DNA from: an uncultured Candidatus Saccharibacteria bacterium | GTDB lineage: Bacteria; Patescibacteriota; Minisyncoccia; 2-02-FULL-40-12; GWA2-44-9 | DNA length: 58,406 nucleotides | Assembly (NCBI GenBank): GCA_964513645.1 | Contig: CAZENF010000004.1 | Span: 1 to 58,406, forward strand | Direction: 5' to 3' | In this document: positions 1 to 58,406 of the stretch, one piece after another | Numbering within the stretch: the stretch's first letter is position 1 | Layout: each line of letters begins with the position of its first letter | Notes under the pieces: generated by a model | Database searches by the model: none | Seen by the model: the letters and a program-made list of their open reading frames with translations, nothing else | What the model was told of the DNA's origin: nothing | Made by a program: the position numbers and the translations under genes

Positions 1-2899
<2,899 letters not shown>

Positions 2900-3397: not shown

Positions 3398-4162
3398 TTA
3401 TAGGGCCGTCAGAACCTTTGGTCCTTTTTCTGTGATAGCAATTGTGTGTTCGAAATGGGCGGCAAGTGAACCGTCTTTGGTTTGAAAAACAAATCCATCC
3501 GGACCTTCTTTTGTCCGCCAGTTACCGGTCACAACCATCGGCTCAATCGCGATAACCATGCCGGGTTTAAGCGTTTCTCCTTCTCCGGCTTTGCCATAAT
3601 TAGGAACCTGAGGAGATTCGTGAAGTTCTTTACCTATTCCATGGCCGACCAGTTCTCTCACAACACCGAAACCGTTTTTCTCGATATGTTTTTGGATTGA
3701 TGAACCGATATCGCCCGTCTTCTTACCTGGTTTAGCTTCTTTTATTCCTATCTCGAGCGCCTCTCTCGTTATACGGATAAGTTTTTTCTTGAGCAAAGTT
3801 TTTTTATCTAATGATAACCCGCCTCCAACCAGAACTGTTACTGCGGAATCTGTGTTAAACCCCTTGAACAAAACTCCCATATCCAATTTTATAATGTCTC
3901 CTTTTTTTAATTCCCTCTCAGAAGGAACACCATGAACTATTTCGTCGTTAACTGAAGTACACAAGACTGCAGGGAAACCGTTATAATCTAAGAAAGCGGA
4001 CCTTGCTCCAAATTTAAAAACAAGCTCTTTGGCGAGCTTTTCTAAATCGAGAGTGGTAATGCCCGGTTTGGCCTTAGCAGATAATTCTTTTAGAATTTCT
4101 GCCAAGATCTTTCCGCCCTCACGCATTACTTCTATTTCTTTTTCCGATTTTATTTTTATCAT
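3398..4162 (-). CDS. map: Methionine aminopeptidase type I
   Basis: 254-aa ORF with the MetAP fold signature (...DEIVHG..., ...GHGIGKELHE..., ...IEPM...). It is the last gene of the spc-type cluster and overlaps adk by 4 nt. Confidence 0.9.
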   Translation of the reverse strand: MIKIKSEKEIEVMREGGKILAEILKELSAKAKPGITTLDLEKLAKELVFKFGARSAFLDYNGFPAVLCTSVNDEIVHGVPSERELKKGDIIKLDMGVLFKGFNTDSAVTVLVGGGLSLDKKTLLKKKLIRITREALEIGIKEAKPGKKTGDIGSSIQKHIEKNGFGVVRELVGHGIGKELHESPQVPNYGKAGEGETLKPGMVIAIEPMVVTGNWRTKEGPDGFVFQTKDGSLAAHFEHTIAITEKGPKVLTAL

Positions 4163-4839
4163 TCTTCGTTCAGTCCTTTTAATATATCTTCCTGAACCTC
4201 ATCTATCGCCTGTTCACCTTCCACTTCAACTATCTTGTATCCTCTTTCTTCCAAAAATGAAAGTATCGGCTGGGTCCGTCTTAAATAAACTTCGTATCTG
4301 ACTCCGATGGTTTCCGGAGTGTCGAGCTCGCGCTTCAAAAGCAGACTTCCATCCTTAGGACAGGTTGTAATATCTTTGAACATCGGGAAATCCGGTATTG
4401 TATGCCGGTTGGCCTGACAAATCCGGCGGCCTGAATTCCTTTTTATAGATTCTTCTTTGGTCAAATTTAAGTGAACAACTTTTACGTTATTTTTCCCGAA
4501 ATATTCCTCAAAAGCCGGAACCTCTTGTTCCGCTTCATACATCGTCCTTGGGTTACCACTTAAAACAACGCCGATGCCCTTATCAGCCATGTTCTTGATC
4601 TTTTCGAGAGTCCACTGAACGATAACTTCAGGCGTCATCAATTCTCCCGACTGCCATATTTTTTTCTCTCTCTTGATTATCTCGTCGTTAGGATCTGAAT
4701 TTTTAAATTTGTCTTCGATGACCTGGGATATCTCAAAATGGACCAAATTCAACTTCTCGGCCAACAATTCCGCCTGTGTCCCCTTTCCCGAACCCGGAGG
4801 CCCGATTAGAAGTATTGCCATTTTTTTGGTCAGTGCCAT
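4159..4839 (-). CDS. adk: Adenylate kinase
   Basis: P-loop LIGPPGSGKGTQ, a LID region with Cys residues, and position after secY. The start could instead be the internal MAILLIG. Confidence 0.9.
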   Translation of the reverse strand: MALTKKMAILLIGPPGSGKGTQAELLAEKLNLVHFEISQVIEDKFKNSDPNDEIIKREKKIWQSGELMTPEVIVQWTLEKIKNMADKGIGVVLSGNPRTMYEAEQEVPAFEEYFGKNNVKVVHLNLTKEESIKRNSGRRICQANRHTIPDFPMFKDITTCPKDGSLLLKRELDTPETIGVRYEVYLRRTQPILSFLEERGYKIVEVEGEQAIDEVQEDILKGLNEE

Positions 4840-4845
4840 GGTTAG

Positions 4846-4874
4846 TTTATAATAACATTTTTAATTAAAACCAA
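4846..4874 (-). promoter_or_regulatory. Promoter candidate TTGGTT-17-TATAAA, 6 nt before the adk ATG
   Basis: rc 4869-4874 is TTGGTT and rc 4846-4851 is TATAAA, followed by CTAACC and then ATG. This would make the mRNA leaderless. Confidence 0.3.
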
Positions 4875-4897
4875 AAAACCGCTTGGAAGCGGTTTTT
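4873..4897 (-). terminator. Intrinsic terminator after secY
   Basis: The minus strand reads AAAAACCGCTTCCAAGCGGTTTTTTGG, directly after the secY stop. Confidence 0.6.
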
Positions 4898-6653: not shown

Positions 6654-7253
6654 TTAAGATTTAGGATTTTGATTATTAGTACTGACTTGGGGTTTAACTC
6701 TTATTTTTTTCAAAGCCTCAAGAGTAGCTCGGGCGATATTTATCTTGTTGTTGGTCCTTTCGATAAGCTTACCGGTCAAACCTTTTAACCCCGCTAATTT
6801 AGCAACGACACGTACCGGACCGCCGGCCTTAACCCCGCCTTGAGCTGGTTTTAACAAAACTACTGCGCTGTGGAATTTTGATTCTACCTGATAAGGAATA
6901 GTTCCGCTAACTATTGGTACGGTGATGAGATTCTTTTTTGCACGGTTAAAAGCTTTTTGCATCGACTGGGCAACATCTATCCCCTTGCCGATACCGAAAC
7001 CGACTTTAGATTTGCCGTCGCCGATAACGATAGCTGTTCTGAAGCTAAAGCGTTTTCCGCCTTTAGTAACCCTGGTTACCCTGGCGATATCCAAAACTTT
7101 CTGATCGTATTCTGATTTGGCTTCCCGGGAACCGTCAAACTTGCGGCCGCCCCGCCTGTCTCCGCCCCCACGGCCACGTCTGAATCCGCCCTGTCCTTGT
7201 CCTCCGCCGAATGATCTCGCTCCAACTGAATTGTTTTGATTATTTTGTTCCAT
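6654..7253 (-). CDS. rpsE: 30S ribosomal protein S5 with a G/R-rich N-terminal extension
   Basis: Core VTRVTKGGKRFSF...GFGIGKG, sitting between rplR and rplO. Only 3 nt separate it from rplO, so there is no rpmD. Confidence 0.92.
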   Translation of the reverse strand: MEQNNQNNSVGARSFGGGQGQGGFRRGRGGGDRRGGRKFDGSREAKSEYDQKVLDIARVTRVTKGGKRFSFRTAIVIGDGKSKVGFGIGKGIDVAQSMQKAFNRAKKNLITVPIVSGTIPYQVESKFHSAVVLLKPAQGGVKAGGPVRVVAKLAGLKGLTGKLIERTNNKINIARATLEALKKIRVKPQVSTNNQNPKS

Positions 7254-7625: not shown

Positions 7626-8165
7626 CTATGCTCCGGCTGTTGCCGCTTTCTTTCCGGCCTTTCTTATCAGAACCTCACCCGAATATTTTATACCGCTGCC
7701 TTTGTAGGGTTCAGGTAATCTTTTTGATTTTATTTCAGCTGCAAAGTGGCCGATAAGTTCTTTGTCTATACCGCTTATCTTAATTACGCTTTTTTCGATC
7801 TTAACAGTTAATCCGGCCGGAATAGCGATTGATATCGGGTGTGAATATCCTAAATTAAGTTCCAAATTATCTCCCTTAACATTGGCCTTATAGCCGACCC
7901 CTTCAAATTCCAATGCTTTTTCAAAACCTTCGGTAACACCTTTGACCATATTCGATAGCAAAGCCCGGGTTAATCCCCAAAGTGATCTTTCTGCACCATC
8001 CTTCAAAGAGACGGATAATTTGTCGCCTTCAACTGAAACATTAACCGAACTGTTTAATTTGAACCTCAACTCCCCTTTTGGACCTTTGACTGAAACCAAA
8101 CCACCGCTGACATCAACATCAACGCCTTTGGGAATTTGAATTATTTTTTTTCCGATTTTACTCAT
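7626..8165 (-). CDS. rplF: 50S ribosomal protein L6
   Basis: 179 aa starting MSKIGKKIIQIPKGVDV, plus the ...YKGSGIKY... motif. Confidence 0.92.
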   Translation of the reverse strand: MSKIGKKIIQIPKGVDVDVSGGLVSVKGPKGELRFKLNSSVNVSVEGDKLSVSLKDGAERSLWGLTRALLSNMVKGVTEGFEKALEFEGVGYKANVKGDNLELNLGYSHPISIAIPAGLTVKIEKSVIKISGIDKELIGHFAAEIKSKRLPEPYKGSGIKYSGEVLIRKAGKKAATAGA

Positions 8166-9763: not shown

Positions 9764-10132
9764 TTAGACCAATTCTTCCGCTAAAGAAGCTATCGTATTA
9801 AAACCTTTTTCTTTAATTTCGCGCGGTATCGGACCGAATATTCTACCGCCTTTTGGTTCGGTACCACCTTCGAGAATAACGACGGCATTGTCGTCAAACC
9901 TAATGTAAGTACCGTCTTTGCGTCGATAAGGATTTCTCTGTCTGACAACCACAGCTTTTAGGACATCTTTCTTTTTAACTACTTTTCTCGGTTCGGCTAC
10001 TTTTACCGAAACTACGACGATATCTCCAAGCTGGGCGTATCGCCGGCGCGAACCTCCAAGCACTTTGAAAACACCGACCTTTTTGGCTCCGGTATTGTCT
10101 GCCACGGTTACAATTGAACGAAGTTGAAGCAT
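9764..10132 (-). CDS. rplN: 50S ribosomal protein L14
   Basis: 122 aa starting MLQLRSIVTVADNTGAKK. Confidence 0.95.
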   Translation of the reverse strand: MLQLRSIVTVADNTGAKKVGVFKVLGGSRRRYAQLGDIVVVSVKVAEPRKVVKKKDVLKAVVVRQRNPYRRKDGTYIRFDDNAVVILEGGTEPKGGRIFGPIPREIKEKGFNTIASLAEELV

Positions 10133-20580: not shown

Positions 20581-20656
20581 ATCCCGTACGAAGTAGCCTC
20601 GCCGAGGTCCCCTTAAGGACTCGTGCCAAAGGCACGAGCGAGACTTCGTACGGGAT
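20581..20656. repeat. TIR hairpin element, copy 1 (76 nt)
   Basis: ATCCCGTACGAAGT (20581-20594) and ACTTCGTACGGGAT (20643-20656) form a perfect 14-bp inverted repeat. The interior folds as a CTCGC/GCGAG stem plus two hairpins. Confidence 0.85.
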
Positions 20657-21649: not shown

Positions 21650-22270
21650 TTAACCGGTGAGGCCAGTAACGAGGTGGAATATCCAAAATATAAGCGGGGA
21701 AGCGAAGAACATAAAGACTATCAAAAACACCGGAAATATGAATAAGGTATTTTTATATAAAAAAGTTTTGAAGGAGTCGAACTTGGGAGGCAAAAGAGTC
21801 ATCAACAGCCAGTGCCCATCAAGCGGCGGAACTGGAAACATATTAAATACCGCCAAGGAAAGATTTAAAAGAACTATCCTTGAAAAAAGGTCAACAACAG
21901 AAGCGGAGCCGATAAAGCCTTCGGCAAAACGCAAGGTAAACCCGAAAAGAAGCGCTAAAACGAGATTTGAAGCAGGGCCGGCAAGGGCAACCTTAACAGG
22001 ACCATACTTTCTGTCATCGAGATTGTTAGGATTATAAGGAACCGGTTTGGCATAACCAAAAGCAAAACCTGTGGCCATATAAAGAATGAACGGCAAAATT
22101 ATCGAACCAAAAAGATCCAGGTGTTTTAAGGGATTCAAGCTCAAACGGCCAAGGTCTTTGGCCGTTGTATCACCTAAAGAATTTGCCATTAGGCCGTGAG
22201 AAACCTCGTGTATTGTAACAGAATATAGAATGACTATTATGTAGAAAATAGGTAGTATTAAAGTCTCCAT
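21650..22270 (-). CDS. Site-2 protease family (M50) membrane metalloprotease
   Basis: HEVSHG plus NMFPVPPLDG in a polytopic protein. I place the start at METLIL (ATG 22270). The ORF-track extension to 22423 reads through repeat copy 2. Confidence 0.8.
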   Translation of the reverse strand: METLILPIFYIIVILYSVTIHEVSHGLMANSLGDTTAKDLGRLSLNPLKHLDLFGSIILPFILYMATGFAFGYAKPVPYNPNNLDDRKYGPVKVALAGPASNLVLALLFGFTLRFAEGFIGSASVVDLFSRIVLLNLSLAVFNMFPVPPLDGHWLLMTLLPPKFDSFKTFLYKNTLFIFPVFLIVFMFFASPLIFWIFHLVTGLTG

Positions 22271-22344
22271 CCTGTACGAAGTAGCCTCCGCCGAGGTCTC
22301 TAAAGAGACTCGCGACTTCGTCGCGAGCGAGACTTCGTACGGGA
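22269..22344. repeat. TIR hairpin element, copy 2 (76 nt)
   Basis: Arms are ATCCTGTACGAAGT and ACTTCGTACGGGA. It has the same architecture as copy 1, with compensatory changes in both internal hairpins. Confidence 0.85.
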
Positions 22345-22351
22345 CCAGTAC

Positions 22352-22380
22352 TTGAAATGTTAGCAAGTTTGATGTAGAAT
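22352..22380 (+). promoter_or_regulatory. Promoter candidate TTGAAA-17-TAGAAT toward rpmB
   Basis: 22352-22357 is TTGAAA and 22375-22380 is TAGAAT. A mirror-image candidate, TTTACA-17-TAACAT, sits on the minus strand at 22357-22385. Confidence 0.4.
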
Positions 22381-22432
22381 GTAAAACACAAATTAAATAC
22401 GTATTGACTAACATCGACCCCAAATATTTCTA

Positions 22433-22484
22433 ACAGATAATCTTATCGGCTACGGTCGTTACGGCGACCGGCCGATTATCTGTT
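22433..22484 (+). promoter_or_regulatory. rpmB leader hairpin 1 (52 nt)
   Basis: Arms AACAGATAATC and GATTATCTGTT form a perfect 11-bp stem. Inside are the CGGCT/GGCCG and GGTCG/CGACC stems. Confidence 0.5.
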
Positions 22485-22487
22485 ACC

Positions 22488-22598
22488 GATGAATTCTGGT
22501 AAAGAAGCAAATCTCTACAGAGAGCAATCTCGGCTAAAGCTCAAGATGCACTACGAGACGGAAGCAACAAGGCAGGGACTTCTTTACCAAAATTCATC
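22488..22598 (+). promoter_or_regulatory. rpmB leader hairpin 2 (111 nt)
   Basis: The 20-nt arms GATGAATTCTGGTAAAGAAG and CTTCTTTACCAAAATTCATC match at 19 of 20 positions. Confidence 0.5.
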
Positions 22599-22626
22599 TG
22601 AAATATGTTGTGGCCCCTCGACGTAA

Positions 22627-22812
22627 ATGGCTACACGTTGTCCAAATTGCGGCAAAAAACCGACGATGGTCACAACTCGCAAGCTTTTGCGTGGTCATTA
22701 TAATCCGACCTCACGCTCAAGGCGCTACCCCAATCTCCAATGGGCTAAAATAGGCGGTGAAAGGATAAAGATTTGCACTGATTGCATCAAGACTCTACAT
22801 AAGGCACAATAG
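22627..22812 (+). CDS. rpmB: 50S ribosomal protein L28, zinc-ribbon form
   Basis: 61 aa with CPNCGKKP...RRYPNLQ...ICTDCIK, matching the L28 pattern (N-terminal CxxC-GK, PNLQ, C-terminal CxxC). Confidence 0.6.
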   Translation: MATRCPNCGKKPTMVTTRKLLRGHYNPTSRSRRYPNLQWAKIGGERIKICTDCIKTLHKAQ

Positions 22813-34536: not shown

Positions 34537-34585
34537 AAGAATTGTCAAAATAACCGGGTTTAACCCGGTTATTTTGACAATTCTT
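34537..34585 (-). terminator. 22-bp perfect palindrome overlapping the yqeY stop
   Basis: AAGAATTGTCAAAATAACCGGG-TTTAA-CCCGGTTATTTTGACAATTCTT. The right arm encodes the last codons (...EELSK*). Confidence 0.6.
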
Positions 34586-39871: not shown

Positions 39872-41893
39872 TTACTTGACCAGAAATTTTGCGATAAGGA
39901 GAGCGACAATGTTAGCTACCTTGATCATGGGATTGATAGCAGGTCCGGCGGTGTCCTTGTAAGGATCCCCTACCGTGTCTCCTGTCACTGCTGCTTTATG
40001 GGCGTCGGAACCTTTGCCGCCATAATTACCCTCTTCGATATATTTCTTGGCATTGTCCCAAGCCGCACCACCAGAAGTCATCGAAATAGCTACGAATAAT
40101 CCGGTAATTATCACTCCCACCAAAAGTCCGCCCAACGCCTGTGGTCCGAGCAGAAATCCGATAGCTATCGGGAATACGATCGGAATAAGCGCCGGCAGTA
40201 TCATTTCTTTTATCGCAGCCCGGGTAACAATATCAACCGCGTTGCCGTAATCCGGCTTTTCCATGCCCTGCATAATGCCAGGCATTTCTTTGAACTGTCT
40301 CCTGACCTCATCCACAACCGCCGCACCGGTCCGGGCAACCGCTTCCATCGCCATTGAACCGAAAAGATACGGCATCATTCCGCCCACAAACAATCCTATC
40401 AAAACTCGAGGATCCTGAAGTTCAAAAAATAACTGACTACCCAAGCTTGAAAGTTCTTGAATATAAGCGCTAAACAAAACCATCGCCGCAAGTCCGGCTG
40501 AAGCGATAGCGTAACCTTTGGTCACCGCTTTGGTCGTATTACCAACCGCATCCAAAGCATCGGTCACCTCTCTGACAGAGTCAGGCAAGTGTGACATTTC
40601 AGCGATCCCGCCCGCGTTATCAGTTATCGGACCGAAGGCATCGATGGCAACAACAATTCCGGCCAGTGAAAGCATGCTCATCGTCGCTAAAGCAATTCCA
40701 TAAAGACCGATGACATAAAAAGCAAGATAAATACCCAGACAAATGACAACAATCGGCAAAGCAGTGGCCTGCATCGAGACGGCCAAACCGGCAATAATAT
40801 TTGTGCCATGGCCGGTGGTAGAAGCTTTGGCGATAGTCTGGACCGGACGGAATTTTTTAGAAGTATAAAAATCAGTTATCAGAACCATTAGCGCGGTTAC
40901 ACCGATACCGATCATCATCGCCCAGAAAACATCCATCCGGTTAACTAAGCCGTTAGATAATTTATCGAGGTCACGGATATAGGTGAGCTTGTTTACCATG
41001 TAATAGAAAATGCCGGCCAGAACAACGGCTGTCACGGCCAGACCTTTATAAAGAGCGTTCATTATTCCGCCCATAATACCCTCGCCCAGACGAACAAACA
41101 AAGAACCGATTATCGAAGCGACCACGGCCGAAGCGCCGATTATCAAAGGCAAAATGGTATAGCCCGGTTCGGAAGGAATAAGTAAACTGCCGAGCAGCAT
41201 AACAGAAACAGCAGAAACAACATAAGTTTCAAAAAGATCGGCCGCCATACCCGCATCATCACCAACTTCATCCCCAACCAAATCAGCAATGACTGCGGGA
41301 TTTCTCGGATCATCTTCAGGAATTCCGGCTTCAATCTTACCAACAAGATCCGCTCCGACATCGGCACCCTTGGTGAAAATTCCACCGCCCAAACGGGCAA
41401 AAACAGAAATAAGAGAAGAACCAAAACCCAAACCAATGAGGGCTTTGACATCTTTGGTTACCCAGTAGAAGAATGTGACCGAGATGAGGGCGAGACCGAC
41501 GACGAAGAAACCTGTCACCGCGCCGCCTTTATAAGCCAGGCCAAAAGCTTCAGCGAGACCTTTTTTAGCTTCCTCGGCAACTCGGACGTTCGCCCGAACC
41601 GCAACCATCATTCCGACATAACCGGCTGCAGCTGAAGCGATCGCACCCAATAAAAATCCAATGGCAATGGTTTTGCCAAGCCCGACAAACAATATTGCCG
41701 CAACCACAATACCAACGGCAAAAACGGTCGTGTTCTGACGTTTAAGATATGCTTCGGCGCCTTCCTGTATCGCCTTCTGTATCGACTGCATTTTTTCATC
41801 GCCGGTCGATTTATTTAATATCTGCCAGATCAGGAAAGCTCCGTAGGCAAGTGATGCCACGCCCGCTCCGATCGGCAACCAGAGAATATTCAT
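39872..41893 (-). CDS. hppA: Membrane-bound proton/sodium-translocating pyrophosphatase
   Basis: [20 protein letters not shown] and [19 protein letters not shown] motifs. Start placed at MNILW (ATG 41893). The ORF-track start at 41908 lies inside repeat copy 3. Confidence 0.93.
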
Positions 41894-42010
41894 CCCGTAC
41901 GAACTCATATGCTACGCATATTATGGTCAAACGTTTGACAATAATATAACCAGCGATGAGCTAAATTAATATTATTTTTGCAAACCCGTCAGGGTGAGTT
42001 CGTACGGGAT
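41892..42010. repeat. TIR hairpin element, copy 3 (119 nt)
   Basis: Arms are ATCCCGTACGAACT and AGTTCGTACGGGAT. The interior contains GGTCAAACGTTTGACA. Confidence 0.8.
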
Positions 42011-43227: not shown

Positions 43228-43467
43228 CTATTTTTTATTATTTTCGGAGTTTAAATATTCCGAAACAAGCTGAGATAGTTTTTCGTGATGTTCCTTCTGG
43301 CTTTTAATTGTTGTAGCCATTTCATCTAAACGCTTATGTAGTGCCAAGTAATCATTGTTACCATTCTGCATATGCCGGCGGGATTTAAGCATCAGATAAA
43401 TATTGATGCCGAGCATGCTCAAAACCGCCAAACTAACCAATGATATTAGAACATAAAAAGGATTCAT
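43228..43467 (-). CDS. Small membrane protein (79 aa)
   Basis: One N-terminal TM helix. It lies 2 nt upstream of rmuC. Confidence 0.6.
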   Translation of the reverse strand: MNPFYVLISLVSLAVLSMLGINIYLMLKSRRHMQNGNNDYLALHKRLDEMATTIKSQKEHHEKLSQLVSEYLNSENNKK

Positions 43468-43577
43468 CCCGTACGAAGTAGCCCTTGCAGGGTCCGAAGG
43501 TCAAATGATTGACATTCATATCCGGGCAAGAACCCCATTATTATCCCGACTGAAGTTTTTACTACTTCGTACGGGAT
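43466..43577. repeat. TIR hairpin element, copy 4 (112 nt)
   Basis: Arms are ATCCCGTACGAAGT and ACTTCGTACGGGAT. There is an extra internal TIR-like ATCCCGACTGAAGT at 43543-43556, and the interior contains GGTCAAATGATTGACA. Confidence 0.85.
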
Positions 43578-43654: not shown

Positions 43655-43924
43655 TGGACCCTACTGAGCTCGAACCGGTTACCTCCACATTGTCCCGATA
43701 AATCATGATGGGCCGCAAGTGGACCGTAGGAGACTCGAACTCCTGACCTCCTCATTGCAAATGAGGCGCTCTACCAACTGAGCTAACGGCCCATCATGAT
43801 TTATCAAGGATCCTCGACTTCATTACCCTAATTTTAAATTGTAAGTCGGGACAAATGTGGCGCTCCTCGCCCGACTGAACAATGTCAGTCGTTCGGGCGG
43901 GTACCAACTAAGCTAAGAGCCACC
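43655..43924 (-). other. Outer tRNA-Ala-like shell, disrupted or intron-like, enclosing tRNA-Ala
   Basis: rc 43902-43924 corresponds to tRNA positions 1-21. Next is a 36-nt hairpin (43866-43901). Then GAGC-G-CCACA-TTTG (43852-43865) corresponds to positions 22-35. A 159-nt insert follows (43693-43851). Finally CAATGTGGAGGTAACCGGTTCGAGCTCAGTAGGGTCCA (43655-43692) corresponds to positions 36-73. Confidence 0.55.
43720..43792 (-). tRNA. tRNA-Ala (UGC)
   Basis: The rc reads GGGCCGT-TA-GCTC-AGTTGGTA-GAGC-G-CCTCA-TTTGCAA-TGAGG-AGGTC-AGGAG-TTCGAGT-CTCCT-ACGGTCC-A. The G3:U70 pair is present. Confidence 0.9.
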
Positions 43925-45430: not shown

Positions 45431-45502
45431 GGGTGCGTAGTTCAGTGGTAGAACGCGTTCCTGATAAGAACGAGGCCGTAGGTCCGATTCCTACCGCACC
45501 CA
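45431..45502 (+). tRNA. tRNA-Ile (GAU)
   Basis: GGGTGCG-TA-GTTC-AGTGGTA-GAAC-G-CGTTC-CTGATAA-GAACG-AGGCC-GTAGG-TCCGATT-CCTAC-CGCACCC-A. The T-loop reads TCC rather than TTC. Confidence 0.85.
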
Positions 45503-45518
45503 CAAAAAAGGAGCTTTT

Positions 45519-57738: not shown

Positions 57739-57974
57739 AAGTTTCTCAACTTTATATAGCTTCCCAGTATTGCCTTTTGACAGAAATTTTTATTCGAGCT
57801 GTCATAGAATTCCGATTTAGCCTTCGGATCAGGCATCAGAATTAATTCCGATATCGACTTCATTTTTTTGAAAGTGTTTAGAGTATAGACGTGAAAAAGT
57901 AGAAAATACTTCTTCCCGTTTTTCGCCTCCACACTTTAAATCCTTTCGTGCATCCAAGAAAAATCTTGAATAGA

Positions 57975-58406
57975 AAGGAGGTGATCCAAGAGCAGCTTCC
58001 GCTACCCTTGCCTTGTTACGACTTAGTTCCTGTCATCGAGCTTACCGTGTCCCTACATATAAAATAGGTCTTCAGGTATTCCCGACTCCCTTAACTTGAC
58101 GGGCAGTGAGTCCAAAATTCGAGAACGTATTCACCGCTGCGTTCTGATCAGCGATTACTAGCAATTCCGGCTTCAAGAAGGCAAGTTGCAGCCTTCTATC
58201 CGAACTGAGGGTGCTTTTGATGGGATTAGCTCCACCTCGCGGTTTGGCAACCCATTGTGACACCCATTGTATCATGTGTGTAGCCCAGGACATCAAAGGG
58301 CCACGCTGACTTGACGTCATCCCCACCTTCCTCCTTCTTACGAAGGCAGTCTCGTCTGACACGTATAACAGACGATAGGGGTTGCGCTCGTTAATCCACT
58401 TAAGGA
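57975..58406 (-). rRNA. rrs: 16S rRNA, 3' ~430 nt; the 5' part runs off the window end
   Basis: The rc ends ...AAGTCGTAACAAGGCAAGGGTAGCGGAAGCTGCTCTTGGATCACCTCCTTT. Also present are CGGTGAATACGTTC and the GGGGATGACGTCAAGTCAGC block. Confidence 0.95.

Follow-up and report, generated by a model that had tools for sequence, protein, structure and literature searches.

A probable non-autonomous inverted-repeat element at the start codon of a Saccharibacteria M50 peptidase gene, from a family with GIY-YIG nuclease-bearing members

Introduction

The M50-family peptidase gene of the window analysed here (the whole 58,406-nucleotide stretch of a Candidatus Saccharibacteria contig) begins directly behind a short, stably folding sequence, of which a second copy lies between rpsG and fusA. 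A first-pass annotation had noted paired base changes between the two copies and read them as a structure under selection rather than a decaying repeat. The locus thus raises the question of whether this sequence is a leader RNA made for the M50 gene or a repeat that arrived there by insertion. Our analysis indicates that repeat versus structure is a false choice, the element being a mobile repeat in which pairing is kept.

Results

The first-pass annotation placed copies 1 and 2 at 20581-20656 and 22269-22344, both 76 nt long, and the sequence is as it described; in their shared frame copy 2 has one additional internal C and lacks the final base. The limits adopted here are given in Table 1. 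The ends of copy 2 are complementary at 12 of their 13 positions, its fold is stable (-39 kcal/mol, z -3.6 versus shuffles), and the covariance model gives it 80 bits for the minus strand against 23 for the plus. In its interior, an extended helix is a possible alternative fold. Copy 2 is without coding capacity, since the ORFs crossing its 75 nt all enter from outside. The earlier reading of the last two bases of the terminal repeat as the A and T of the start codon holds for the A, which belongs to the element; the T already belongs to the duplicated target, as its first base.

Table 1. Positions of copy 2, its host gene and the other copies in the window
Feature	Position	Strand	Description
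Copy 1	20582..20655	(-)	Interior class as copy 2; between rpsG and fusA; 91.9 bits (covariance model)
M50-family peptidase gene (host)	21650..22270	(-)	206 aa; PF02163, E 2.6e-13
Right target-duplication copy	22266..22269	(-)	TGGA; with the A of the element gives ATGGA, the M50 start
M50 ATG	22270-22268	(-)	A is the last base of copy 2; T and G are duplicated target
Copy 2	22270..22344	(-)	75-nt ORF-less element; T at 22344 is the sense 5' end
Copy 2, sense 3' end	22270	(-)	A of the M50 ATG
Copy 2, sense 3' inverted end	22270..22282	(-)	ACTTCGTACAGG-A; 1 mismatch (C.A), three pairs from the ATG end, alignment column 5/88
Copy 2, interior	22283..22331	(-)	3 small hairpins: 22285-22296, 22296-22309, 22309-22327
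Copy 2, sense 5' inverted end	22332..22344	(-)	T-CCCGTACGAAGT; family consensus
Left target copy, decayed	22345..22349	(-)	ACTGG, expected ATGGA; from comparison of empty and filled orthologous sites
Predicted transcription start	22349	(-)	A
Predicted M50 promoter	22357..22385	(-)	TTTACA-17-TAACAT, TG preceding the -10 box; promoter scan; conserved in M50 orthologues
Copy 3	41893..42009	(-)	117-nt member, interior differs; adjoins the H+-pyrophosphatase ATG (41893-41891)
Copy 4	43467..43576	(-)	110-nt member; adjoins the ATG (43467-43465) of a 79-aa ORF

The TTTACA-17-TAACAT promoter proposed earlier for the M50 gene was recovered by our scan and is conserved at more than 70 orthologous loci. 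Because this promoter would start transcription about 5 nt upstream of the element, the element would indeed fill the predicted M50 5' UTR, as had been claimed. However, 74 of the 79 M50 orthologues have no element, and at these empty sites the promoter lies in leaderless register directly on the ATG, ending 7 nt upstream of it, a spacing (~7 nt) as expected for a leaderless mRNA. The M50 start is filled at 4 of the 79 orthologous sites, at the same nucleotide and by differing interior classes; L066 holds another filled M50 site, and L090, also at M50, has lost the upstream ATG as copy 2 has. The target duplication of copy 2 itself has decayed (CTGG versus TGGA).

The element belongs to a family whose 13-bp inverted ends read T-CCCGTACGAAGT…ACTTCGTACGGG-A. 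The paired ends are matched at 71 loci, 69 of them in Patescibacteria MAGs, and relaxed end matching raises the count to 98 copies. The inverted ends are perfect in 57 of 76 orientable copies, a figure inflated by sampling, since members were collected by the exact end pattern with 43-101 nt spacing, which favours young, intact copies. The flanks are laid out as A|TGRA|T-element-A|TGRA, and 51/71 copies have an exact 4-nt duplication, whereas shuffles average 20.9 and reach at most 32. About 80% of duplications are TGAA or TGGA, and where ATG stands on both sides the fourth duplicated base agrees in 42 of 44 copies (30 A/A, 12 G/G); CGCA, TAAA, TTTA, TTGA, TTAA and TCAA are also found duplicated, and the left flank of several copies is GTG, TTG or a non-start. 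To the right stands an ATG in 63/73 copies, and these ATGs open long ORFs in unrelated host genes (among them H+-PPase, M50, L3, S17, L9, L34, PGK, FtsX). One copy, in L016, is nested in another with a CGCA duplication, the uninterrupted sequence being present in L045, and L001 carries serial copies. Since the element is absent from 74/79 orthologues, and since its class precedes unrelated genes, target duplications flank family members and one copy is nested, these sequence comparisons mark it as a MITE-like insertion and not as a regulatory leader made for the M50 gene.

A -10-like box lies 5-9 nt upstream of the left target copy in 34 of 71 copies, versus 7-14/71 at shifted registers, and the genes of the window are mostly without a Shine-Dalgarno (SD) sequence, many with a TATAAT-like box 6-9 nt upstream of the ATG. 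An SD-like GGA stands directly upstream of the left ATGAAT; it is more likely a promoter discriminator, or a remnant left by an earlier right end (…CGGGA|TGAA), as seen in L001, than an SD. The commonest interior class lengthens the sequence by exactly 75 nt (25 codons), in most cases with the reading frame open throughout, but other lengths occur (73, 77 and 98-120 nt) and the frame is not generally kept.

The orientation of the interior relative to the gene is fixed in every class, which the symmetric ends do not explain for the ORF-less copies. An internal outward promoter was considered as a cause and rejected, as a consensus scan of 44 long copies gave no sense bias in promoter-like matches (8/44 sense versus 8/44 antisense). 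By eye, one 117-nt class has a conserved TGnTATAAT-like box. An invertible promoter was dismissed on the same fixed orientation, and on a segment of just 49 nt.

The compensatory changes seen by the first-pass annotation were largely borne out. Hairpin B changes from CGTGCC/GGCACG to CGCGAC/GTCGCG, two swapped pairs that both remain Watson-Crick. Hairpin A changes from GTCC/GGAC to GTCTC/GAGAC, with one compensated pair (C-G to U-A) and a U.G that becomes C-G on the sense strand, but the bulged G said to be conserved there is not identifiable in the folds. Aligning copies 1 and 2 shows full compensation at three pairs, a single G.U and, in copy 2's terminal stem, one C.A without compensation. 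Paired substitutions generalise over the family. In an alignment of 21 members, 98.5% of cells are paired, 33 cells are doubly changed versus 9.6 in shuffles, double changes fall at 9-10 pairs, and the covariation score is reached by 0/500 shuffles. Left and right ends also co-vary (TACG to TTAG/CTAA; AAGT to AAAT/ATTT), and the loops are hypervariable. As a sign of selection at the RNA level we looked for an excess of sense-strand G.U pairs and found none in the hairpins (about 9 G.U versus 6-8 A.C) or in the inverted ends (0 G.U versus 4 A.C); these counts have no strand asymmetry and therefore do not demonstrate selection on the sense RNA rather than on DNA. The earlier reading is thus upheld in its paired substitutions, which amount to significant covariation across the family, but not as a leader selected for M50, whose orthologues mostly do without the element.

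Longer copies of ~275 nt with the same ends carry a single gene, for a GIY-YIG nuclease of 86-89 aa. The last four codons, which specify its C-terminus (F/L-R-T-G), fall within the right end; the stop codon, TGA, derives from the duplicated target bases and overlaps the ATG of the host gene. Two such copies of 276 nt with intact 89-aa ORFs occur in L019 (Pfam GIY-YIG, E 2.9e-16). We found 1978 homologues of the nuclease and counted tails, starts and motifs in the best 120 of them: the nuclease motifs are conserved, the right-end-encoded tail is present in 107, of which 96 stop exactly at [FL]xTG*, while 11 of the 120 read on past the tail, mostly with W (TGG), and about 12 begin with M-N/D-P-V-R-N, the translation of the left target copy and left end. 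The tail was absent in all of the best 150 distant cluster representatives inspected, and the link with inverted ends was seen only in the Patescibacteria subfamily of the nuclease. In the contexts read, upstream of an SDR gene, rplI and folA, the same ends flank the ORF and it overlaps the next gene by ATGA; in the L175 copy the next gene lies about 50 nt downstream.

The full-length copy in L167 carries exactly the ends of copy 2, and GIY-YIG copies lie beside ORF-less ones in L001, L019, L032, L058 and L097. The class of copy 2 and the nuclease-bearing copies have only their ends in common; subterminal homology between ORF-less and ORF-bearing copies is weak (z <= 3), with none for the class of copy 2. 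Pairs of ends 0.3-4 kb apart, searched over about 1.1 Mb of loci, enclosed no transposase; such pairs were all neighbouring short copies or chance matches.

The window contains 8 occurrences of the inverted-end 12-mer versus 2.5 expected, and copies 1-4 all fold far more stably than shuffles (z -3.6 to -8). The fusA ATG lies 44 nt downstream of copy 1, whose flanks have no recognisable target duplication. The left flank of copy 3 is GTGAAT, so the original start of its host gene was probably GTG. No promoter was found within copies 1 or 3, and no nuclease gene of the GIY-YIG element family within the 58-kb window. The covariance model of the copy 1/2 class yielded no additional copy in the window and gained a single new member, L118 9982-10054.

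Several other identities were set aside. Rfam has no match for the element at gathering score or at E <= 1, and a tRNA-like element was rejected, ARAGORN finding just three normal tRNAs. The motif ACTTCGTA is shared with the arms of loxP; we treat this as coincidence, there being no spacer-type site and no recombinase. Integron attC sites, with their GTTRRRY/RYYYAAC cores, cassette arrays and nearby integrase, were discarded because the copies are dispersed before housekeeping genes; GTTAAC- or GTCAAC-like flanks occur in a minor subfamily only and fit the 4-bp duplication. Copy 2 is not a free-standing GIY-YIG homing gene, such an ORF being present only in its longer relatives, and spread by break repair at a single cognate site without ends was rejected, as inverted ends and duplications are present and many host genes are occupied.

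Discussion

The best overall explanation, which we regard as likely, is that copy 2 is a non-autonomous MITE inserted in the M50 start, from a family with full-length GIY-YIG members that may mobilise it. The ancestral M50 gene would have had a leaderless-type promoter ending 7 nt upstream of its ATG. The element would then have inserted behind the A of this ATG, duplicating the next four bases, TGGA; because it ends in A, a new ATGGA start would have formed at its far end, and the old upstream target copy would later have decayed to ACTGG. M50 would now be transcribed from its old promoter, with the 75-nt element as a tightly folded 5' UTR. The nuclease could mobilise the full-length copies and the ORF-less ones alike, the paired ends probably being recognised in DNA as a hairpin or cruciform. 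Complementarity of the stems would then be maintained on both strands, which would account for the compensatory changes. The captured host promoter may drive the nuclease gene, and stop/start coupling could allow translation of the host gene downstream of its ORF; where the ORF is missing, as in copy 2, ribosomes might use the host AUG directly where it stands at the stem foot, or do so once the stem has been processed in the RNA.

A dedicated cis-regulatory RNA, in which a cloverleaf-like 5' UTR controls translation or stability of M50 (as thermosensor, protein-binding leader or 5' stabiliser), would draw on the stable fold of copy 2, the family covariation, and a predicted 5' UTR that the element fills with the A and U of the AUG paired in its stem. 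We consider it very improbable in view of the 74/79 orthologues that lack the element, the occurrence of the same class before unrelated genes and also inside an operon, the target duplications and nested copy, the hypervariable loops, the missing G.U excess on the sense strand, and the want of any Rfam match even at E <= 1. Translational bypass, with a ribosome starting on the old 5'-terminal AUG and hopping the hairpin to an identical AUG-RA, as in T4 gene 60 or the mitochondrial byp elements, is scarcely credible: most copies do have matched take-off and landing sequences (ATGRA...ATGRA) around a stable hairpin, but target duplication accounts for these, neither copy 2 nor L090, which lies at the same gene, retains the upstream ATG, and several left flanks are GTG, TTG or non-start.

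The remaining alternatives concern how the family moves and what it does after insertion. Inverted ends with a fixed-length duplication classically signal a DDE transposase, and the 4-bp duplication here, together with unrelated interiors that have only ends in common, is what an ordinary MITE moved by a conventional, unseen DDE transposase would leave, the GIY-YIG gene being a passenger or a separate selfish gene in the same ends. We think this unlikely, because the roughly 1.1 Mb of loci showed no transposase between end pairs 0.3-4 kb apart and because in most of the best 120 homologues the nuclease ORF matches the ends with single-nucleotide precision, 107 having the tail and 96 of these stopping at the target-made TGA. 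GIY-YIG enzymes are known as homing endonucleases, and a homing-like spread can be imagined in which the nuclease cuts A|TGRA and repair copies the donor via 4-6 nt of microhomology (ATGRA), mimicking a target duplication. The preponderance of TGAA and TGGA (about 80%) and the repeated use of the same site (M50 six times, serial copies in L001) point that way, but homing strikes us as distinctly unlikely, since unrelated duplications such as CGCA or TTTA exist, since it has no need of conserved, covarying inverted ends, and since the protein is an 86-aa catalytic core without a further DNA-binding domain. The element could also have acquired an RNA role, its 13-14 bp stem being cut in RNase III-like fashion to leave a near-leaderless mRNA at or beside the AUG, or a 5'-terminal stem protecting the mRNA. 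This is possible, though we lean against it, and it is compatible with the insertion of a MITE rather than exclusive of it. It fits a host lineage that appears reliant on leaderless or SD-less starts, an AUG exactly at the stem foot in most copies, the fixed orientation of the interior relative to the gene, and the non-intron insertions with GIY-YIG ORFs reported in CPR rRNA genes by a paper that also notes the removal of such intervening sequences by RNase III without ligation (PMC11270868). Against it, a 13-bp stem is short for RNase III and the wobble pairs lack strand asymmetry.

Beyond the MITE at the M50 start, we tentatively propose a new class of prokaryotic transposable element which, at ~275 bp, would be among the smallest autonomous ones. 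Its sole protein, the 86-aa GIY-YIG nuclease, would act on hairpin or cruciform ends, and the element would enter leaderless genes at their first codon, in a single orientation and possibly via DNA melted at the transcription start, taking over the host promoter and returning a start codon and a coupled ATGA; copy 2 would be an ORF-less hitch-hiker. To our knowledge, no GIY-YIG enzyme is known to transpose, and the literature searched contained no account of these elements or of inverted ends enclosing only an 86-residue GIY-YIG nuclease. If the proposal is true, this would be the first bacterial inverted-repeat element with target duplication tied to a GIY-YIG enzyme, and many Patescibacteria genes annotated as GIY-YIG nuclease family protein (close homologues in about 2000 clusters at 90% identity) would not be repair genes but the central part of a mobile element. 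It would describe a parasitic strategy suited to leaderless genes, which is to enter the start codon, borrow the host promoter and return the ATG. Annotation would be affected by mis-called starts (N-terminal MNPVR… extensions) and by hairpins taken for regulatory leaders, and the copies would offer natural test cases for initiation behind a strong stem in SD-poor, leaderless-rich bacteria.

Among known systems, the Correia elements of Neisseria are short ORF-less MITEs with inverted ends and a TA duplication, whose hairpin is co-transcribed in mRNA. The elements described here are likewise short and ORF-less, with inverted ends, a short duplication, many copies adjoining genes and a hairpin transcribed in mRNA. 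They differ in end sequence, in a 4-bp (TGRA) rather than TA duplication, in fixed orientation, in entering the start codon itself and restoring the ATG, and in a candidate autonomous partner that is a GIY-YIG nuclease and not a DDE transposase. Rickettsia palindromic elements are, like ours, small palindromic mobile elements that coding sequence tolerates within it or at its edge, and the commonest class here measures 25 codons; our elements, however, sit on the first codon rather than inside ORFs and do not generally conserve the frame. The closest solved relatives of the nuclease are UPF0213/YhbQ-type proteins (PDB 1ZG2, 1YWL; E 5e-9), of the same size and single domain. Free-standing GIY-YIG homing endonuclease genes are represented by the phage T4 Seg proteins and I-TevI (PMC2988022), and like these, the nuclease gene is a selfish insertion flanked by conserved genes (thyA/folA in L167, for instance); in contrast to them, the protein here is an 86-aa core with no DNA-binding domain, there are 13-bp inverted ends, a 4-bp duplication and ORF-less derivatives, and the element has spread to many unrelated genes in one genome. 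GIY-YIG ORFs are also reported in short insertions of CPR rRNA genes that belong to neither of the intron groups I and II (PMC11270868); those insertions share the phylum and the GIY-YIG ORFs with the elements described here but are located in rRNA genes.

Results

Copy 2 (c2) is one of four copies (c1–c4) of an inverted-end element in this Patescibacteria contig of ~42% GC, whose two ends carry 23S and 16S rRNA. It is 76 nt long and is bounded on the + strand by CCTGTACGAAGT … ACTTCGTACGGG, the adjoining CAT being, on the minus strand, the ATG of a gene for a 206-aa M50 peptidase. Eight occurrences of the end 12-mer, forming four pairs, were counted in the window, where 2.5 would be expected. 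c1 and c2 have a common interior, c3 and c4 share only their ends with them, and all four fold far better than shuffled sequence on either strand. The M50 gene is divergent from an L28-like gene, and their spacer holds two more inverted repeats besides c2.

Element copies and other features in the window and in loci retrieved from other genomes and metagenomes (L-numbers)
Feature	Position	Context
c1	20581-20656	between rpsG and fusA
c2	22269-22344	abuts M50 ATG
c3	41892-42010	abuts H+-pyrophosphatase ATG
c4	43466-43577	abuts ATG of 79-aa ORF
M50 promoter	22385-22357	TG before -10 box
M50/L28-like spacer	22391-22626	357 nt, vs ~45-60 nt in orthologues
Spacer repeat	22431-22485	12-mer arm recurs only as scattered single matches
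Spacer repeat, longer	22483-22603	no second occurrence among loci examined
L28-like gene	22627-22812	+ strand
Perfect palindrome	34537-34585	24 + 24 nt (AAGAATTGTCAAAATAACCGGGTT / AACCCGGTTATTTTGACAATTCTT)
23S rRNA	1-2899	~55 kb from 16S, same strand
tRNA-Ala	43719-43792	away from rRNA genes
tRNA-Ile	45431-45503	away from rRNA genes
16S rRNA	57974-58406	
L118, L111, L097, M50 site		long classes; junctions ttcaagt-ATGGAT[…]ATGGA
L090, M50 site		69-nt class; left target copy decayed to ATTAGT
L097, 64-nt insertion	~4812-4875	CCAGGTAGTGAATTTTTCAG…CTGAAAAATCTACTACCTGG, flanked by TCAA
L016, nested copies	3999-4178	duplication CGCA
L001, adjacent copies	1560-1921 (minus)	
L058, nuclease-bearing copy	7679-7936 (minus)	C/G-type ends
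L061, 111-nt element	7125-7235	Ktedonobacterales MAG, outside Patescibacteria
L118, second copy	9982-10054	69-nt class, left end decayed, duplication TAAA

Relatives of the M50 protein were searched in metagenomes, giving 80 loci (44-83% identity) with the start on the contig in 79, and 74 of these starts lack the element. Empty sites read TTTACA/TTGATA-N17-TAACAT/TAGGAT-ttcaagN-ATGGA…; their promoter is that of the window and stops 7 nt short of the ATG, spaced as for a leaderless mRNA. The TTTACA-17-TAACAT promoter suggested by the first-pass annotation was recovered both by a scan of the window and in the M50 orthologues. In four orthologues an element occupies the identical nucleotide position (Table), L066 is a further filled case, and the window junctions are ttcaagt-ACTGGT[…]ATGGAG. 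Orthologous sites being empty or filled at the same nucleotide, c2 has inserted itself between the M50 start codon and a leaderless promoter, and the old start has since been lost. In 34/71 copies a -10-like box is found 5-9 nt upstream of the left target copy; at shifted registers this holds for 7-14/71. An SD sequence is missing from most window genes even with a normal 16S 3′ end, and a TATAAT-like box precedes the ATG of many window protein genes by 6-9 nt. Upstream of the main element in L097, between the -10 box and the M50 start, lies an inverted-repeat insertion of another kind, 64 nt long, a single case among the loci examined.

In gene orientation the junctions read A/TGRA/T-CCCGTACGAAGT … ACTTCGTACGGG-A/TGRA/N. 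The four bases before the element's T equal the four after its A in 51/71 copies (shuffles: mean 20.9, maximum 32); ATG stands on both sides of 44 copies, the fourth base agreeing in 42 of them (30 A/A, 12 G/G). The base beside CCCG is T in 67/71 copies and that after CGGG is A in 69/73, and these near-invariant bases are therefore the element's own, so that the ends measure 13 bp and the duplication 4 bp. In a minor subfamily the ends are C…G and the duplicated bases TTAA or TCAA. At the right junction, 63/73 copies have an ATG, and real genes begin there. Since left GTGAAT or TTGAAT faces right ATGAAT in c3 and L065, and left GTGAGT/TTGAGT faces right ATGAG in L006 and L007, the element's A can convert a GTG or TTG start into ATG. 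The sequence preference at insertion is only A/TGRA, yet real start codons are often struck. In L016 one copy lies within the hairpin of another, and the uninterrupted sequence is present in L045. Together, the duplications, regenerated ATG, nested copy and uninterrupted site indicate insertion by a mobile element. The ends of the L016 copies are cross-complementary, nested pairs having one mismatch each and interleaved pairs none. In L001 a decayed nuclease copy (tail …FLFLRE-stop, eroded ends) is directly followed by a 99-nt ORF-less copy at a regenerated A/TGAA, which looks like serial insertion at one start codon; older right ends may have left behind the GGGA that frequently precedes left ATGAAT.

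Compensatory changes had been proposed between c1 and c2, and alignment of the two copies bears them out: hairpin B has two exchanged pairs, and hairpin A one exchanged pair and one U·G to C-G change. Hairpin B has another compensated pair at its base, the loops vary freely, and the terminal stem of c2 has one uncompensated C·A. A cloverleaf-like structure (terminal stem plus three hairpins) was scored on 21 members of the c1/c2 class (69-nt class), aligned in sense orientation. It pairs 98.5% of cells, with both-side changes at 9 pairs, 33 doubly changed cells against 9.6 ± 2.1 in shuffles, and a covariation score of 0.178 against 0.072, equalled by 0/500 shuffles; the signal is gone when partner columns are shifted by 1-3. 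Every combination of the polymorphisms is found, an argument for repeated events. The ends also change in concert (TACG to TTAG/CTAA; AAGT to AAAT/ATTT).

Nuclease-bearing copies have the same ends. L019 contains two of 276 nt (end variant AAAT/ATTT), flanked by ATGAAT/…/ATGAAA and ATGAAT/…/ATGAAC, each with an intact 89-codon ORF from an ATG within the left end; the codon before the stop (GGA) ends on the element's final A, and the stop TGA is the first three bases of the duplicated target. The protein matches Pfam GIY-YIG (E 2.9e-16), its nearest solved relatives being the UPF0213 proteins 1ZG2 and 1YWL. A database search gave 1978 homologues at E <= 1e-5, mostly 86 aa, annotated as GIY-YIG nuclease family protein and coming from MAGs of Paceibacterota, Nomurabacteria and Parcubacteria. 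The Y-x-Y, Y-T-G, R, H-N and E motifs are among the conserved positions. Among the best 120, 96 end exactly in [F/L]-x-T-G-stop, the translated right end plus TGA, 11 read on past the right end, mostly with W (TGG, duplication TGGA), and about a dozen begin M-N/D-P-V-R-N, the translated left target copy and left end. In the wider protein family, none of the 150 best distant representatives has this tail. As the right end is coding and the left end must match it, the ends are strongly conserved in sequence. Where the next gene encodes a short-chain dehydrogenase or is rplI or folA, the ORF runs in the same direction as that gene and overlaps it by ATGA (flanks ATGAAT/CCCGTACGAAAT … ATTTCGTACGGG/ATGAA). 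L175 differs, its ORF running 4 codons beyond the right end to a TAA in the flank, ~50 nt before the next gene. The L167 nuclease copy has exactly the ends of c2, nuclease and ORF-less copies adjoin in L001, L019, L032, L058 and L097, and no nuclease copy was found within the 58-kb window. The L058 nuclease has no stop at the right end and reads in frame into a type IV pilin-like N-terminus (…LPLTG/FTLIEVLI…), the prepilin cleavage motif following directly.

An exact search for paired ends, with one genome per species, returned 71 loci, 69 of them from Patescibacteria MAGs (labelled Nomura-, Yanofsky- and Zambryskibacteria, Paceibacterota and "Saccharibacteria"); relaxed matching across all loci examined gave 98 copies. 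Lengths cluster at 69, 77, 98-100 and 107-120 nt, and interior classes have nothing in common except the ends. Relative to the downstream gene, all interiors of a class point the same way, and ORF-less copies do so despite symmetric ends. Genes behind c1/c2-class copies include L3, FtsX, phosphoglycerate kinase, sugar transferase and M50. The L061 element has the same 12-nt ends, extended to ~22 nt, with a weak GIY-YIG match (39% identity) ~4 kb away. The second L118 copy lies at the 3′ end of a small ORF that runs through it to a TAA formed by the element's final A and the duplication.

Discussion

Our data establish that the element inserts at start codons, duplicates 4 bp, restores the ATG with its last base and keeps a fixed orientation, and that nuclease-bearing copies with the same ends exist. 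We suggest that every copy is moved by the nuclease, which might recognise a hairpin or cruciform formed by the paired ends. Branched DNA is cut by other GIY-YIG enzymes, for example Slx1. A captured host promoter would express the nuclease, and stop/start coupling would then give translation of the host gene.

The pairing is under constraint, at a level, RNA or DNA, that the wobble counts do not tell apart: no strand signal was found in the hairpins (~9 G·U against 6-8 A·C) or in the ends of 76 oriented copies (912 pairs: 0 G·U, 4 A·C, 4 other mismatches). Recognition of a hairpin or cruciform would constrain both strands, which fits this absent asymmetry. The cloverleaf also has a competitor, an extended stem (columns 15-19 with 70-75) that scores equally well and is preferred by RNAalifold; because columns 16, 67 and 74 change together (T/T/A, G/G/C, T/T/G), both mutually exclusive helices are maintained in the 69-nt class. 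For c2, transcription would start near 22349, making a 75-nt fold the entire 5′ UTR, and M50 translation would begin at an AUG with its A and U paired at the foot of the stem, where the single C·A mismatch weakens the helix. An attractive alternative is that the stem is cut, leaving a near-leaderless mRNA.

The element behaves like a MITE, showing every defining feature that can be tested, with a putative link to the mobilising enzyme. Correia, REP and ERIC elements, attC sites, invertible switches and curated RNA families were each rejected as its identity. In the literature searched, neither start-codon insertion in Patescibacteria nor an inverted-repeat element with a minimal GIY-YIG nuclease at its core is described. 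There is a considerable chance, if less than an even one, that this family forms a new class of transposable element. In CPR rRNA genes, GIY-YIG ORFs have been described within non-intron insertions (PMC11270868).
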